Origin: Escherichia coli
GTDB lineage: Bacteria; Pseudomonadota; Gammaproteobacteria; Enterobacterales; Enterobacteriaceae
Reading direction: 5' to 3' (one strand)
Length of the DNA stretch: 64,000 nucleotides
Assembly (NCBI RefSeq): GCF_003334355.1
Contig: NZ_QOWP01000001.1
Shown here: positions 32,182 through 64,000 of the stretch, piece by piece
Layout: every line of letters begins with the position of its first letter
Position numbering within the stretch: position 1 is the first letter of the stretch
Notes under the pieces: generated by a model
The model's database searches: none
Seen by the model: only the letters and a program-made list of their open reading frames with translations
What the model was told of the DNA's origin: nothing
Position numbers and translations under genes: made by a program

Positions 32182-32400
32182 GCCGGATGCGGCGTGAACG
32201 CCCTATCCAGCCTACGGTTATGTTCCGGTTTGTAGGCCTGATAAGACGCACAGCGTCGCATCAGGCAACGGCTGTCGGATGCGGCGTAAACGCCTTATCC
32301 GACCTACGGTTATGTTCCGTTTGTAGGCCTGATAAGACGCACAGCGTCGCATCAGGCAACGGCTGCCGGATGCGGCGTGAACGCCCTATCCGACCTACGG
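32182..32400. repeat. REP/BIME array (repetitive extragenic palindromes) between tldD and yhdP
   Basis: Repeated units gccggatgcggcgtgaacgccctatcc...cctac and gtaggcctgataagacgcacagcgtcgcatcaggca, arranged in about three tandem ~98-bp units. Confidence 0.9.
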
Positions 32401-52817: not shown

Positions 52818-53480
52818 TTACATGACACTTAATTCATTCGTTTGATGAATTAATTTCGTTATGTTTTCATCTGGCATGAACATTCTTAATACGTTATCGA
52901 CCAGCGCGGGTGCTTGTTTATAAAGATCATAACCCGCCATATTCATTAACCAGTTTTGAACAATTCCGCTGAAGGCACCATCAATAATAATCATCACAAC
53001 ATCTAAATCGAGGTTATTTGCTACACAACCTTGTTGCTGACACGCCTGCAATACTTCGCGGAGAGTCTGCGGATTAAAGCCCATCTTTTCGCGTATCACT
53101 CCCTCGGCCAGCATCTCATCATTAAATTCACATTTGTGATATAAGATTTTCAGCAACGCCTGCTGGCGGGGAATTTTGGCAATATATTGCAAGCCGACAA
53201 TCAATTTTTCACGCAATTGTTGAAACGGGTCATGCTCTAATCCAGCCGTCAAGTGTTCCTGGATTAACTCCCGCAATGAAGGCTGTTGCAACCACATCTC
53301 ATTAAACAGTTGGGTCTTGTTCTCGAAGTGCCAGTAGATAGCGCCACGCGTAACGTTAGCGGCATCGGCAATGTCGTTGAGCGTCGTCTTGCTTACGCCA
53401 TGTTGCGCAAACTGGGCGATGGCAGTTTCAATCAGTTCTTGCCGGGTCTTCAGAGCTTCGGCTTTGGTTCTTTTTGCCAT
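52818..53480 (-). CDS. acrS: TetR-family repressor AcrS (EnvR)
   Basis: 220-aa ORF with a TetR HTH (TKTTLNDIADAANVTRGAIYWHFENK), divergent from acrEF. Confidence 0.93.
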   Translation of the reverse strand: MAKRTKAEALKTRQELIETAIAQFAQHGVSKTTLNDIADAANVTRGAIYWHFENKTQLFNEMWLQQPSLRELIQEHLTAGLEHDPFQQLREKLIVGLQYIAKIPRQQALLKILYHKCEFNDEMLAEGVIREKMGFNPQTLREVLQACQQQGCVANNLDLDVVMIIIDGAFSGIVQNWLMNMAGYDLYKQAPALVDNVLRMFMPDENITKLIHQTNELSVM

Positions 53481-53878
53481 GATTAATTATTCAGGAAATA
53501 AATATATTCGACACAGGGTGAGAAAATAGCGAAGGTTAATCTATCATCTAATGTGTATTTATACGAGAGGGTAACATTGAGTTTCTATAAATCGTCAAAT
53601 AAATAATATATATTATTTACCTAAAATACATTCGCCACATGAATATATATTTCAATTTACGAGGTTTTAATTCTGCCTCTTTCAACCCGCGTCAAAATAA
53701 AACAGTAGAATATTAATCTTTTTTTGTGTTTATGTGCCTTGAGACGCCAGTATTCATAACTATTCCTTACATCGACGAATGATAATTTGTAGGATAGCAA
53801 ACTGTATTTTTCTTTCTGCGAGTTAACGCGTTGCCTTTCTGGGTAAATAACGCGCTTTTGGTTTTTTGAGGAATAGTA

Positions 53879-55036
53879 ATGACGAAACATGCCAGGTTTT
53901 TCCTCCTGCCCTCCTTTATTCTGATCTCCGCGGCTTTAATCGCCGGTTGTAACGATAAGGGAGAAGAGAAAGCTCACGTCGGTGAACCGCAGGTTACCGT
54001 TCATATTGTGAAAACGGCCCCGTTAGAAGTTAAGACTGAATTACCAGGTCGCACCAATGCTTACCGTATAGCCGAAGTTCGCCCACAGGTTAGCGGGATC
54101 GTACTGAATCGTAATTTCACTGAAGGCAGCGATGTACAAGCAGGCCAGTCCCTGTACCAGATCGATCCCGCGACCTATCAGGCAAATTATGACAGCGCGA
54201 AAGGCGAACTGGCGAAAAGTGAAGCCGCCGCCGCCATCGCGCATTTGACGGTAAAACGTTACGTTCCGCTCGTGGGTACGAAATACATCAGCCAGCAGGA
54301 GTACGACCAGGCCATTGCTGATGCTCGCCAGGCCGATGCCGCCGTGATTGCCGCAAAAGCCACAGTCGAAAGCGCTCGCATCAATCTCGCTTATACCAAA
54401 GTGACTGCGCCAATTAGCGGACGTATCGGCAAATCGACCGTGACCGAAGGCGCTCTTGTCACTAATGGGCAAACGACTGAACTGGCGACTGTCCAGCAGC
54501 TCGATCCTATCTACGTTGATGTGACCCAATCCAGCAACGATTTTATGAGGCTGAAGCAATCCGTAGAGCAAGGAAATTTGCATAAGGAAAACGCCACCAG
54601 CAACGTAGAGTTGGTCATGGAAAACGGTCAAACCTATCCCCTGAAAGGTACGCTGCAATTCTCTGATGTGACCGTTGATGAAAGCACCGGCTCCATAACC
54701 CTACGTGCTGTCTTCCCTAACCCGCAACATACGCTTTTGCCGGGTATGTTTGTGCGTGCACGGATTGATGAAGGCGTCCAACCTGACGCCATTCTTATCC
54801 CGCAACAAGGCGTTAGCCGCACACCGCGTGGTGATGCAACCGTGCTGATTGTTAACGATAAAAGTCAGGTGGAAGCGCGCCCTGTCGTTGCCAGTCAGGC
54901 GATTGGCGATAAATGGTTGATTAGCGAAGGTCTGAAATCTGGCGATCAAGTCATTGTCAGCGGCCTGCAAAAAGCGCGTCCGGGAGAGCAGGTTAAAGCC
55001 ACTACCGATACCCCCGCAGATACTGCATCGAAGTAA
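53879..55036 (+). CDS. acrE: Multidrug efflux membrane fusion lipoprotein AcrE
   Basis: 385-aa ORF with a lipobox (LIAGCND); RND periplasmic adaptor. Confidence 0.95.
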   Translation: MTKHARFFLLPSFILISAALIAGCNDKGEEKAHVGEPQVTVHIVKTAPLEVKTELPGRTNAYRIAEVRPQVSGIVLNRNFTEGSDVQAGQSLYQIDPATYQANYDSAKGELAKSEAAAAIAHLTVKRYVPLVGTKYISQQEYDQAIADARQADAAVIAAKATVESARINLAYTKVTAPISGRIGKSTVTEGALVTNGQTTELATVQQLDPIYVDVTQSSNDFMRLKQSVEQGNLHKENATSNVELVMENGQTYPLKGTLQFSDVTVDESTGSITLRAVFPNPQHTLLPGMFVRARIDEGVQPDAILIPQQGVSRTPRGDATVLIVNDKSQVEARPVVASQAIGDKWLISEGLKSGDQVIVSGLQKARPGEQVKATTDTPADTASK

Positions 55037-55047
55037 GGTAATCTGAC

Positions 55048-58000
55048 ATGGCAAACTTTTTTATTCGACGACCGATATTTGCATGGGTGCTGGCCATTAT
55101 TCTGATGATGGCGGGCGCACTGGCGATCCTACAATTGCCCGTCGCTCAGTATCCAACCATTGCACCGCCTGCGGTTTCTGTTTCGGCAAACTATCCAGGT
55201 GCTGATGCGCAGACCGTGCAGGATACGGTGACGCAGGTTATCGAACAGAATATGAATGGTATCGATAACCTGATGTATATGTCCTCCACCAGCGATTCCG
55301 CCGGTAGCGTGACAATTACCCTTACCTTCCAGTCCGGGACCGATCCTGATATCGCGCAAGTGCAGGTGCAGAACAAACTCCAGCTCGCCACGCCGTTGCT
55401 GCCGCAGGAGGTTCAGCAGCAGGGGATCAGTGTTGAAAAGTCCAGTAGCAGCTATTTGATGGTGGCGGGCTTTGTCTCTGATAACCCAGACACCACACAG
55501 GACGATATCTCGGACTATGTGGCCTCTAACGTTAAAGATACGCTTAGCCGTCTGAATGGCGTCGGTGACGTACAGCTTTTCGGCGCACAGTATGCGATGC
55601 GTATCTGGCTGGACGCCGATCTGCTAAACAAATATAAACTGACACCGGTTGATGTGATTAACCAGTTGAAGGTACAGAACGATCAGATCGCTGCCGGACA
55701 GTTGGGCGGAACGCCAGCGTTACCAGGGCAACAGTTGAATGCCTCGATTATTGCTCAAACGCGGTTAAAAAATCCGGAAGAATTCGGCAAAGTGACCCTG
55801 CGCGTAAACAGTGACGGCTCGGTGGTACGCCTGAAAGATGTCGCACGGGTTGAACTTGGCGGTGAAAACTATAACGTTATCGCTCGTATCAACGGAAAAC
55901 CGGCGGCGGGCCTGGGGATTAAGCTGGCAACCGGCGCGAATGCTCTCGATACCGCGAAAGCCATTAAGGCAAAACTGGCGGAATTACAGCCATTCTTCCC
56001 GCAGGGAATGAAGGTTCTCTACCCTTATGACACCACGCCATTCGTCCAGCTTTCTATTCACGAAGTGGTAAAAACGCTGTTCGAAGCCATTATGCTGGTG
56101 TTCCTGGTGATGTATCTGTTCTTGCAGAATATGCGAGCAACGCTGATCCCCACCATTGCGGTACCCGTGGTGTTGTTAGGGACGTTTGCCATCCTCGCCG
56201 CTTTTGGTTACTCCATCAACACACTAACGATGTTCGGGATGGTGCTTGCCATCGGGCTGCTCGTCGATGATGCGATAGTGGTGGTGGAGAACGTCGAGCG
56301 CGTGATGATGGAGGATAAGCTCCCGCCAAAAGAAGCGACGGAAAAATCAATGTCGCAAATCCAGGGCGCACTGGTGGGTATCGCGATGGTGCTGTCAGCG
56401 GTATTTATTCCGATGGCATTCTTCGGCGGTTCTACTGGGGCAATTTATCGCCAGTTCTCTATCACCATCGTTTCGGCAATGGCGCTTTCTGTTCTGGTGG
56501 CATTGATTCTTACCCCTGCGTTATGTGCAACGCTGCTTAAACCCGTCTCTGCTGAGCATCACGAAAATAAGGGCGGTTTCTTCGGCTGGTTTAATACTAC
56601 CTTCGATCATAGCGTTAACCACTACACCAACAGCGTCGGCAAAATCCTCGGTTCCACAGGACGATATTTACTGATCTATGCGCTGATTGTTGCAGGAATG
56701 GTGGTGTTGTTTTTACGTCTTCCGTCTTCCTTCTTACCTGAAGAGGATCAGGGTGTCTTTCTGACCATGATTCAGTTACCCGCTGGCGCGACGCAAGAGC
56801 GGACGCAAAAAGTGTTGGATCAAGTGACGGATTACTATCTGAAGAACGAGAAAGCGAACGTTGAAAGTGTCTTTACGGTTAACGGCTTTAGCTTCAGCGG
56901 CCAGGCACAAAACGCCGGTATGGCCTTCGTCAGTCTGAAACCGTGGGAAGAGCGTAGTGGTGACGAAAACAGTGCGGAAGCGGTAATCCATCGTGCCAAA
57001 ATGGAATTGGGCAAGATCCGCGACGGTTTTGTCATTCCATTCAACATGCCAGCCATTGTTGAACTGGGCACGGCAACGGGTTTCGACTTTGAGTTAATTG
57101 ATCAGGCTGGGCTGGGTCACGATGCCCTAACCCAGGCCCGTAACCAGTTGCTTGGTATGGCGGCGCAACATCCTGCCAGCTTAGTCAGCGTGCGCCCTAA
57201 TGGCCTGGAAGACACCGCGCAGTTTAAACTGGAAGTTGACCAGGAAAAGGCGCAGGCATTAGGTGTTTCACTTTCTGACATCAATCAGACCATTTCAACG
57301 GCGCTGGGTGGGACTTACGTTAACGACTTCATCGACCGTGGTCGCGTGAAAAAGGTGTATGTTCAGGCGGATGCCAAATTCCGTATGCTGCCAGAAGATG
57401 TCGATAAACTTTATGTCCGCAGCGCCAACGGCGAAATGGTGCCATTCTCGGCCTTTACCACTTCACATTGGGTGTATGGCTCTCCGCGACTGGAACGCTA
57501 CAACGGTCTGCCGTCAATGGAGATTCAGGGGGAAGCCGCGCCAGGAACCAGTTCCGGCGATGCCATGGCGTTGATGGAAAACCTTGCGTCAAAATTACCT
57601 GCGGGCATTGGTTATGACTGGACGGGTATGTCGTATCAGGAACGCTTATCGGGAAACCAGGCTCCCGCTCTGGTAGCAATTTCCTTTGTGGTTGTTTTCC
57701 TGTGCCTTGCTGCACTCTATGAAAGCTGGTCAATTCCTGTCTCGGTTATGTTGGTAGTGCCGTTAGGGATTGTCGGCGTGCTACTGGCGGCAACACTCTT
57801 TAATCAAAAAAATGACGTCTACTTTATGGTGGGCTTGCTAACGACAATTGGCTTGTCGGCCAAAAACGCTATTTTGATTGTTGAGTTCGCTAAAGATCTC
57901 ATGGAGAAAGAGGGTAAAGGTGTTGTTGAAGCGACACTAATGGCAGTACGTATGCGTCTGCGTCCTATCCTGATGACCTCTCTCGCCTTTATTCTCGGCG

Positions 58001-58152
58001 TATTACCGCTAGCTATCAGTAACGGTGCCGGCAGTGGCGCGCAGAACGCAGTGGGTATCGGGGTAATGGGCGGAATGGTCTCTGCAACGTTGCTGGCAAT
58101 CTTCTTCGTACCGGTGTTCTTTGTGGTGATCCGCCGTTGCTTTAAAGGATAA
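55048..58152 (+). CDS. acrF: RND multidrug efflux permease AcrF
   Basis: 1034-aa ORF beginning [36 protein letters not shown]... Confidence 0.96.
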
Positions 58153-59056: not shown

Positions 59057-60082
59057 ATGAAAAAGATGATGATAGCCACACTGGCTGCCGCCAGCGTGCT
59101 GCTTGCCGTTGCAAATCAGGCGCATGCTGGCGCGACGCTTGATGCCGTACAGAAAAAAGGTTTTGTGCAATGCGGGATCAGTGATGGATTACCTGGGTTC
59201 TCTTATGCCGATGCTGACGGTAAATTTTCAGGTATTGATGTTGATATTTGTCGTGGTGTTGCCGCTGCTGTATTTGGTGACGACACGAAAGTGAAATATA
59301 CCCCGCTCACTGCAAAAGAACGCTTCACCGCTTTACAGTCAGGGGAGGTGGATTTGCTCTCCCGTAATACGACCTGGACTTCATCTCGCGATGCCGGGAT
59401 GGGAATGGCATTTACTGGCGTCACTTATTACGACGGCATTGGCTTCCTGACGCACGATAAAGCGGGGCTAAAAAGCGCGAAAGAACTGGATGGCGCTACC
59501 GTCTGTATTCAGGCGGGTACTGATACCGAACTCAACGTCGCCGACTATTTCAAGGCAAACAATATGAAGTACACACCAGTGACTTTCGATCGCTCTGACG
59601 AATCAGCGAAGGCACTGGAATCTGGTCGCTGCGATACGCTGGCTTCGGATCAATCCCAACTGTATGCCCTGCGCATCAAATTAAGCAACCCGGCTGAATG
59701 GATTGTCTTACCGGAGGTTATCTCTAAAGAACCGCTTGGGCCGGTAGTTCGTCGTGGCGATGATGAATGGTTCTCGATTGTACGCTGGACGCTTTTCGCC
59801 ATGCTAAATGCTGAAGAGATGGGCATCAATTCCCAGAACGTCGATGAAAAAGCGGCTAATCCAGCAACGCCTGATATGGCACATCTGCTGGGTAAAGAAG
59901 GCGATTACGGCAAGGATCTGAAGTTGGATAATAAATGGGCCTATAACATCATCAAACAGGTGGGTAACTACTCGGAAATTTTTGAGCGTAACGTAGGTTC
60001 AGAAAGCCCGCTGAAAATTAAACGTGGGCAAAATAATCTCTGGAATAACGGCGGTATTCAGTACGCACCGCCCGTGCGTTAA
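59057..60082 (+). CDS. yhdW: Amino acid ABC transporter periplasmic binding protein YhdW
   Basis: 341-aa ORF with a signal peptide (MKKMMIATLAAASVLLAVANQAHA); family 3 solute-binding protein. Confidence 0.92.
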   Translation: MKKMMIATLAAASVLLAVANQAHAGATLDAVQKKGFVQCGISDGLPGFSYADADGKFSGIDVDICRGVAAAVFGDDTKVKYTPLTAKERFTALQSGEVDLLSRNTTWTSSRDAGMGMAFTGVTYYDGIGFLTHDKAGLKSAKELDGATVCIQAGTDTELNVADYFKANNMKYTPVTFDRSDESAKALESGRCDTLASDQSQLYALRIKLSNPAEWIVLPEVISKEPLGPVVRRGDDEWFSIVRWTLFAMLNAEEMGINSQNVDEKAANPATPDMAHLLGKEGDYGKDLKLDNKWAYNIIKQVGNYSEIFERNVGSESPLKIKRGQNNLWNNGGIQYAPPVR

Positions 60083-63432: not shown

Positions 63433-63438
63433 TATTTG

Positions 63439-63558
63439 ATGCCTGGCAGTTCCCTACTCTCGCATGGGGAGACCCCACACTACCATCGGCGCTACGGCGT
63501 TTCACTTCTGAGTTCGGCATGGGGTCAGGTGGGACCACCGCGCTACTGCCGCCAGACA
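63439..63558 (-). rRNA. rrfF: 5S ribosomal RNA, distal copy (rrfF-like)
   Basis: The reverse complement matches E. coli 5S rRNA (UGCCUGGCGGCAGUAGCGCGGUGGUCCCACCUGACCCCAUGCCGAACUCAG...GGAACUGCCAGGCAU). Confidence 0.95.
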
Positions 63559-63595
63559 AATTCTTTTCTAATCTGCCGAACTTTAACCTAAAAAG

Positions 63596-63671
63596 TGGTG
63601 CTGATACCCAGAGTCGAACTGGGGACCTCACCCTTACCAAGGGTGCGCTCTACCAACTGAGCCATATCAGC
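63596..63671 (-). tRNA. thrV: tRNA-Thr (anticodon GGU)
   Basis: The reverse complement reads GCTGATATGGCTCAGTTGGTAGAGCGCACCCTTGGTAAGGGTGAGGTCCCCAGTTCGACTCTGGGTATCAGCACCA, a cloverleaf with a GGT anticodon and encoded CCA. Confidence 0.95.
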
Positions 63672-63683
63672 ACGCTAAATTTG

Positions 63684-63803
63684 ATGCCTGGCAGTTCCCT
63701 ACTCTCGCATGGGGAGACCCCACACTACCATCGGCGCTACGGCGTTTCACTTCTGAGTTCGGCATGGGGTCAGGTGGGACCACCGCGCTACTGCCGCCAG
63801 ACA
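63684..63803 (-). rRNA. rrfD: 5S ribosomal RNA, second copy
   Basis: Identical in sequence to the copy at 63439-63558. Confidence 0.95.
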
Positions 63804-63840
63804 AATTCTTTTCTAATCTGCCGAACTTTAACCTAAAAAG

Positions 63841-63916
63841 TGGTGCTGATACCCAGAGTCGAACTGGGGACCTCACCCTTACCAAGGGTGCGCTCTACCA
63901 ACTGAGCCATATCAGC
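63841..63916 (-). tRNA. thrV: tRNA-Thr (anticodon GGU), second copy
   Basis: Identical to the tRNA at 63596-63671; part of an exact 245-bp tandem unit. Confidence 0.9.
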
Positions 63917-63928
63917 ACGCTAAATTTG

Positions 63929-64000
63929 ATGCCTGGCAGTTCCCTACTCTCGCATGGGGAGACCCCACACTACCATCGGCGCTACGGCGTTTCACTTCTG
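63929..64000 (-). rRNA. 5S ribosomal RNA, third copy (3' portion; truncated by the window end)
   Basis: Same sequence as the 3' part of the other 5S copies; the gene continues beyond position 64000. Confidence 0.9.

Follow-up and report, generated by a model that had tools for sequence, protein, structure and literature searches.

The acrS-acrE control region of an Escherichia coli strain is uninterrupted and free of the documented acrEF-activating lesions

The bgl operon is a cryptic operon of Escherichia coli that is silenced by H-NS and activated by insertion of IS elements. For the acrEF operon of E. coli K-12, low expression, derepression on deletion of hns and activation by IS elements have been reported (PMC4462101; PMC6599122; PMC9780535; PMC9330008; PMC9783932), and the activating elements named in the literature are IS1, IS2, IS5 or IS10. 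A preliminary description of the DNA studied here called acrEF normally silent and classically activated by IS insertion, which agrees with these five papers. In Salmonella enterica, envR-acrEF is silenced by H-NS and activated by IS1 or IS10 according to Olliver (2005) and Nishino (2009), as cited in PMC9780535 and PMC9330008. The fucAO/IS5 case is grouped here with bgl as an H-NS-silenced cryptic operon activated by IS insertion (PMC11894529).

The window, i.e., the whole stretch of 64,000 nucleotides that was analysed, contains the acrS-acrEF locus with the following features. Negative positions in the text are counted upstream from the acrE start codon.

52818-53480, minus strand: acrS (envR), TetR-family repressor gene, 220 aa, intact ORF
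53481-53878: acrS-acrE divergent intergenic control region (the spacer), 398 bp, 31.4% G+C, uninterrupted
53879-55036, plus strand: acrE, periplasmic adaptor gene, 385 aa, intact ORF
55048-58152, plus strand: acrF, RND permease gene, 1034 aa, intact ORF without internal stop

AcrS matched NCBIfam NF007430, the equivalog for the regulator of the acrEF/envCD operon, at 434 bits against a cutoff of 274 and over its full length (residues 1-220 of 220). The AcrS and AcrE proteins are 100% identical to those of K-12 (0 amino-acid differences), and AcrF differs at 4 of its 1034 residues (G148D, F240L, N637S and L770V). AcrE and AcrF scored 613.6 and 1972.6, below the equivalog cutoffs for AcrA (765) and AcrB (2150), as expected for paralogues. 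Furthermore, RefSeq labels the matching DNA acrS and acrE in thousands of genomes, and the gene order fis-yhdJ-yhdU-acrS / acrE-acrF-yhdV-yhdW in the window is that of the MG1655 and PSS-12 annotations. At the end of this series, yhdW (59057-60082), which encodes the substrate-binding protein of an amino-acid ABC transporter, is an intact ORF of 341 aa here and in PSS-12 and is annotated as a pseudogene in MG1655.

Two observations elsewhere in the window concern RNA genes. Positions 63434-64000 hold the distal end of an rRNA operon (rrnD by synteny) with a perfect 245-bp tandem repeat of 5S rRNA and tRNA-Thr(GGU) in at least 2.3 copies; 5S and tRNA-Thr genes are each present twice, the 5S genes complete, and a third unit begins but is cut at the window end. 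In K-12 and in the otherwise near-identical PSS-12 the rrnD end comprises only 5S-tRNA-Thr-5S, and judged from this repeat the strain seems to have one extra 5S-thrV unit. On the minus strand, 32235-32395 contains two adjacent matches to Rfam naRNA4 (CssrE; REP-derived nucleoid-associated RNA) at 77 and 71 bits, with a gathering threshold of 59.5.

The spacer is bounded by the start codon of acrS (complement), which ends at 53480, and by the ATG of acrE, which starts at 53879, and these two codons fix the coordinates and the length of 398 bp given in the preliminary description exactly, to the base. It is also A+T-rich as described, with a G+C content of 31.4% against 51.5% for the whole window and a minimum of 29.5% in 200-bp windows. 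Alignment with the reference intergenic region, which had been proposed as the check for an insertion, was gapless: the spacer differs from MG1655 (NC_000913.3, 3413466-3413863) by 14 substitutions and 0 indels, and that of PSS-12 is 100% identical. Exactly 398 bp separate the two genes in seven other E. coli lineages (MG1655, SE15, O157:H7 F6667, BH100, C1, GN06156 and 100181). The claim that the region contains no IS element is borne out by this alignment and by the lack of target-site duplications and mobile DNA. The absence of a transposase ORF was likewise confirmed, since the only two ORFs that overlap the spacer (77 and 52 aa, chance ORFs) matched no NCBIfam family at E<=1. The further statement that terminal inverted repeats are missing holds for repeats of the IS type; its wording was too loose, in that short inverted repeats (10-18 nt) do exist, none of which brackets an insert.

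These short repeats are what could be cited for a small non-autonomous mobile element (a MITE or IS remnant) that lies hidden in the spacer and was missed for want of an ORF: one pair has 18-nt arms that are 78% complementary with 100 nt between them, and another has 14-nt arms at 93%. However, the spacer runs collinear, base by base, with the reference and with the spacers of seven other E. coli lineages, it is orthologous from end to end in Salmonella and Citrobacter as well as in E. albertii, E. whittamii and the cryptic clades, and no Rfam family reached threshold, which makes such an element extremely improbable. A search of the spacer against Rfam gave nothing at gathering thresholds; the sole match at E<=1, a Lactococcus leader, scored 20 bits against a threshold of 70 and was taken as chance. 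Very probably, the window carries the divergent acrS(envR)-acrEF control region of E. coli in its ancestral form, as an allele without insertion.

In evolved acrB-deletion lines of K-12, IS1 was found at -138, IS2 at -86 or -90 with duplication of GTAGG, and IS5 at -163 and -94 (PMC9783932). The same study reports two acrEF-activating SNPs selected in evolution experiments, T>G at -92 and G>A at -86, and an IS2 insertion 10 bp upstream of acrF. As cited there, Kobayashi (2001) described insertions at -90 and -187, and Jellen-Ritter and Kern (2001) are cited for IS-activated acrEF alleles in acrB mutants. In the window, positions -187, -163, -138, -94, -92, -90 and -86 are all wild type in base and context when compared with K-12. 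Neither activating SNP is present (53787, i.e., -92, is T and 53793, i.e., -86, is G), and the IS2 target pentamer GTAGG occurs in a single copy at 53789-53793 and is therefore not duplicated. The acrE-acrF spacer has its normal, unaltered 11 bp (GGTAATCTGAC). No IS element was found in the acrS-acrE spacer, in acrS or between acrE and acrF; the intact state of acrS matters because evolved lines deleted for acrB yielded IS insertions inside this gene (PMC7771234). None of the documented activating lesions is present in the window.

Given that the claim is one of absence, the prevalence of the intact state is the statistic that counts. The spacer was used as a megablast query against 5426 complete E. 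coli genomes, and a match was counted as one piece when at least 80% of the query was covered. The spacer matched in 5231 of the 5426 genomes and was uninterrupted in 5215 of these 5231 (99.7%), and 20 records had a match split between two places. When the query was extended by 100-bp coding flanks, 5242 genomes matched, 5218 of them in one piece and 12 in two places. From the ranking of the 5231 genomes, 59 full-length rows were sampled at even intervals, and each of them spans exactly 398 bp. The hot spot is thus occupied or disrupted in about 0.3-0.4% of sequenced isolates, which is a first estimate of its rarity in nature. The intact spacer is the default state, an ordinary finding and the already known configuration of a well-studied locus.

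Other features of the genome set were noted in the course of the search. About 184-200 of the 5426 genomes (about 3.5%) gave no megablast match to the spacer, even with the 100-bp coding flanks, and the acrS-acrE junction is apparently absent from them. One match was located on a plasmid, and the identity of matching spacers to that of the window ranged down to 92.5%.

Three examples of disrupted alleles were examined. In the bovine strain XJ55, which served as a positive control for an occupied allele, the spacer measures 1175 bp and contains a 768-bp IS1 (IS1B) with terminal inverted repeats and a 9-bp target duplication, CTGCGAGTT, at -63 to -55 (53816-53824 of the window); in the annotation of this strain, acrF is a pseudogene that has an internal stop. 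In GN25, IS1A stands in place of the end of yhdU, the whole of acrS, the spacer and the first acrE codons (an IS1-mediated deletion). In the blood isolate 035152, likewise an IS1-mediated deletion, IS1 follows base 61 of the spacer, and the remaining spacer, acrEF, yhdV and part of yhdW are deleted. At least in these three isolates, IS1 at this locus goes with deletion or gene decay as often as with possible activation. Genotype callers could use the three alleles as references.

Orthologous loci from other species were collected by scanning genome contigs with a degenerate DNA pattern for the AcrS helix-turn-helix peptide TRGAIYWHFENK, which gave at least about 120 loci; of those listed, 12 were enterobacterial, and 10 of the 12 were usable. 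The usable loci represent E. albertii and E. whittamii, three Escherichia lineages that are divergent or cryptic (two carry the deposit name Escherichia sp. and one E. coli), Pseudocitrobacter, two species of Citrobacter and two subspecies of Salmonella enterica. The peptide was rejected as a pattern specific for AcrS (as against AcrR), as it is encoded in many TetR-family genes outside Enterobacteriaceae, with matches in TetR regulators of Burkholderiales, Paraburkholderia, Pseudomonas, Rhodoferax, Succinivibrionaceae and others. Across the five genera the spacer keeps a length of 376-412 bp and a G+C content of 30-34%. Its sequence is variable: among eight E. coli strains 51 of the 398 columns (12.8%) vary; the corresponding values are 4.7% in acrS and 4.1% in the initial 700 bp of acrE, so that polymorphism within E. 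coli is about three times that of the flanks. The variation peaks at 53581-53680 (-298 to -199; 27 of 100 columns), and the segment from -170 to -1 has only 7 variable sites in the eight strains. Only two blocks inside the spacer are invariant in 13 sequences, CTTACAT and ATTTGTAGGATA. They contain, or lie close to, the following elements.

53721-53740, minus strand: putative mar/sox/rob box AAGGCACATAAACACAAAAA, in backward orientation, predicted in PMC2453137 and here located exactly
53766-53771, plus strand: candidate -35 hexamer CTTACA, within the invariant CTTACAT at 53766-53772 (-113 to -107)
53785-53796 (-94 to -83), plus strand: block ATTTGTAGGATA, invariant in 13 sequences from five genera
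53790-53795, plus strand: candidate -10 hexamer TAGGAT, inside ATTTGTAGGATA

The distance between CTTACA and TAGGAT is always 18 nt, gap-free, in the 13 sequences from five genera, and by this conservation CTTACA-N18-TAGGAT is probably the native, weak core promoter of acrE. A generic sigma-70 scan of the spacer did not call this pair and returned 2 promoter-like sites, compared with 2.0 in shuffled sequences; a terminator scan found one terminator-like site only, inside acrS. No published transcription start site for acrE was found in the literature. The candidate promoter coincides with the mutational hot spot, in that the IS2 target GTAGG lies inside the candidate -10 element and with the G>A change at -86 TAGGAT would become TAGAAT. 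Together, these two features would explain activation at this spot. With a weak native promoter of this kind, IS elements that carry outward-facing promoters, or that form hybrid promoters, would activate acrEF.

A marbox-like sequence has been proposed for the acrEF control region (PMC2453137). The cores of the putative box located here, GTGCC and TTTT, are conserved across the 13 sequences from five genera, and its centre lies about 71.5 bp upstream of the start site inferred for the candidate promoter. This arrangement tentatively suggests a reading that we hold to be rather doubtful, namely that acrEF is not just a relic dependent on insertions for its expression but belongs to a mar/sox/rob-type regulon and is activated under certain conditions. 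Under that reading, an invariant weak promoter would be served by a conserved backward putative marbox about 25 bp upstream, and the -10 element would double as the IS2 target GTAGG and as the site of the activating G>A change. The base-resolution conservation map of the control region across Escherichia, Salmonella and Citrobacter is a by-product of modest value.

Downstream of the candidate promoter, the leader contains two further elements.

53827-53854, plus strand: hairpin or palindrome, with inner stem 53832-53836/53841-53845 and outer stem 53827-53831/53850-53854
53868-53873, plus strand: acrE Shine-Dalgarno sequence GAGGAA, read from the sequence, with AGGAA invariant in 13 sequences

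The hairpin is followed by a T-rich run at 53856-53867 (CTTTTGGTTTTTT) and then by the Shine-Dalgarno sequence. Within the leader, compensatory changes occur only here (pair 90-102: GC in 5, GU in 4 and AU in 3; pair 93-99: UG in 4, GC in 3 and UA in 1), and RNAalifold retains the inner stem of the hairpin. The arms of the inverted repeat are TTGCC/GGGTA in E. coli, TTGCC/GGCAA in E. albertii and TTACCG/CGGTAA in Salmonella. The repeat at 53827-53867 could be a leader hairpin or attenuator, or else a palindromic site for a protein on DNA.

A different role for the leader was considered, in which acrE is held off by translation: in a long 5' leader, the segment from -125 to -112 would pair with the Shine-Dalgarno sequence and AUG of acrE, and insertions near -90 would remove this block. 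In single sequences the folding agrees with such a helix. The 156 nt from -134 to +22 fold at -40.9 kcal/mol compared with -30.4 +/- 3.5 for shuffles (z = -3.0; 0 of 200 as good), the unpaired probability from Shine-Dalgarno to AUG is 0.13 for 5' ends at or upstream of -134 and 0.4-0.5 for 5' ends at -110 or nearer to acrE, and the helix is predicted in all eight of eight E. coli strains. However, the 13 sequences from five genera hold 0 compensatory pairs for it, and outside Escherichia 7 of its 15 pairs are lost; the RNAalifold consensus, which has an energy of -8.5 kcal/mol and a covariation term that is unfavourable (+0.46), lacks it, and a 14-nt arm with one mismatch was seen in 7 of 200 shuffles. 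Moreover, the published activating insertions at -138, -163 and -187 would keep the anti-Shine-Dalgarno arm. The 5' arm overlaps the invariant CTTACA block, and thus its conservation is explained without RNA. The helix was rejected for want of covariation and because it breaks in Salmonella and Citrobacter, and we regard a translational block of this kind as very unlikely.

The insertion-free spacer carries 14 substitutions relative to K-12 (3.5%), whereas the genes on either side diverge about one third as much (0.9-1.1%), and 10 of the 14 fall in its acrS-proximal half. Two, G>A at -80 and T>C at -40, lie in the conserved acrE-proximal part. Only the substitution A>G at -245 hits a position that is conserved among the other 12 sequences in the comparison; it lies within an operator-like near-palindrome. 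It could be argued from these differences that acrEF is not silent even though the spacer is free of IS elements, through point changes or through changes in trans (hns, stpA, mar/sox/rob or loss of acrB); the selection of the single SNPs at -92 and -86 as activating (PMC9783932) indicates that point changes can matter, and -245 A>G alters a conserved position. Nevertheless, -92 and -86 are wild type here, -80 is free to vary among genera (G, C or A), and -40 falls in the loop of the hairpin. The exact 81-bp haplotype from -100 to -20 occurs in 1846 of 5226 genomes (35%), and 664 genomes have the entire spacer at 99% identity or more. The frequency of the haplotype marks a common natural allele and not a selected mutant, and acrEF that is active behind this IS-free spacer is considered unlikely. 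In the sample of eight strains -80A and -40C had appeared to be private alleles; this was rejected when they were found in 35% of genomes, and the two changes are common polymorphisms.

The preliminary description expected acrEF to be in a repressed state controlled by H-NS and AcrS, and the two regulators fare differently. With regard to H-NS, the high-affinity motif TCGATAAATT had 0 matches in the spacer at <=1 mismatch, all 10 matches in the window lying elsewhere. Thus, the argument for H-NS rests on base composition and published genetics: a spacer of 69% A+T would be the type of DNA that H-NS coats, and deletion of hns is reported to derepress acrEF. The genes hns, acrAB, marA, soxS and rob lie outside the window. 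Judged from the control region, expression of acrEF probably stays at the low basal level reported for K-12, and the operon probably does not contribute to efflux in this strain.

The case for control by AcrS is weak. According to PMC9780535, EnvR predominantly represses acrAB and not acrEF, and is itself silenced by H-NS, whereas other papers name acrEF as a target of AcrS/EnvR. The 24-bp AcrR/EnvR operator, TACATACATT-N4-AATGTATGTA, which was verified in the acrR-acrA spacer of K-12, had a best match of 14/24 in the acrS-acrE spacer compared with a mean of 14.3 in shuffles (P = 0.80), and 0 matches at <=3 mismatches in the whole window. A canonical operator in the spacer was rejected on this basis, the match being no better than shuffles. 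A scan for half-sites produced one candidate operator.

53626-53648: near-palindrome ATACATTC-N7-GAATATAT, candidate operator only

This near-palindrome has the ACATT/AATGT half-site cores of the AcrR/EnvR operator at a spacing that is about 5 bp longer. It is partly conserved within the hypervariable centre of the spacer and forms a perfect 10-bp inverted repeat in E. albertii; 3 of the 14 differences from K-12 fall inside it. Direct control of acrEF by AcrS is doubtful because the papers disagree and an operator of the AcrR/EnvR type was not found in the spacer. A role of AcrS as a co-silenced repressor of acrAB is more likely than one as a local brake on acrEF. It was also observed that AcrS diverges much faster than AcrE, with identities of 82.7% vs 95.8% in E. 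albertii and 63-65% vs 83-86% in Citrobacter/Pseudocitrobacter, which fits the remark that envR is unusually variable (PMC6790063).

An unoccupied hot spot matters little in itself and is useful bookkeeping for the annotation of resistance genotypes. Compared with described systems, the locus is closest to the envR-acrE region of K-12 MG1655, which has the same 398 bp and the same synteny (yhdU-acrS / acrE-acrF-yhdV) and is 14 substitutions apart. The IS-activated alleles, both those from the laboratory (IS1, IS2 or IS5 at -86 to -187) and that of XJ55, share the locus and the targets, namely GTAGG at -90 to -86 and CTGCGAGTT at -63 to -55. However, they carry an element and its target duplication (1175 bp in XJ55), and the window has neither in its 398 bp. 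The Salmonella enterica locus has the divergent layout, a spacer of about 410 bp with 31-34% G+C, the same CTTACAT and ATTTGTAGGATA blocks, the marbox-like core and the Shine-Dalgarno region; it differs in a spacer centre that is barely alignable and in an AcrS that is 67-69% identical, against 87% for AcrE. By analogy, acrEF may be likened to operons of the bgl type: the DNA upstream is rich in A+T, native expression is poor, and IS elements or promoter-proximal point mutations bring about activation. Unlike bgl, acrEF has a fully functional paralogue, acrAB, which masks the need for acrEF.
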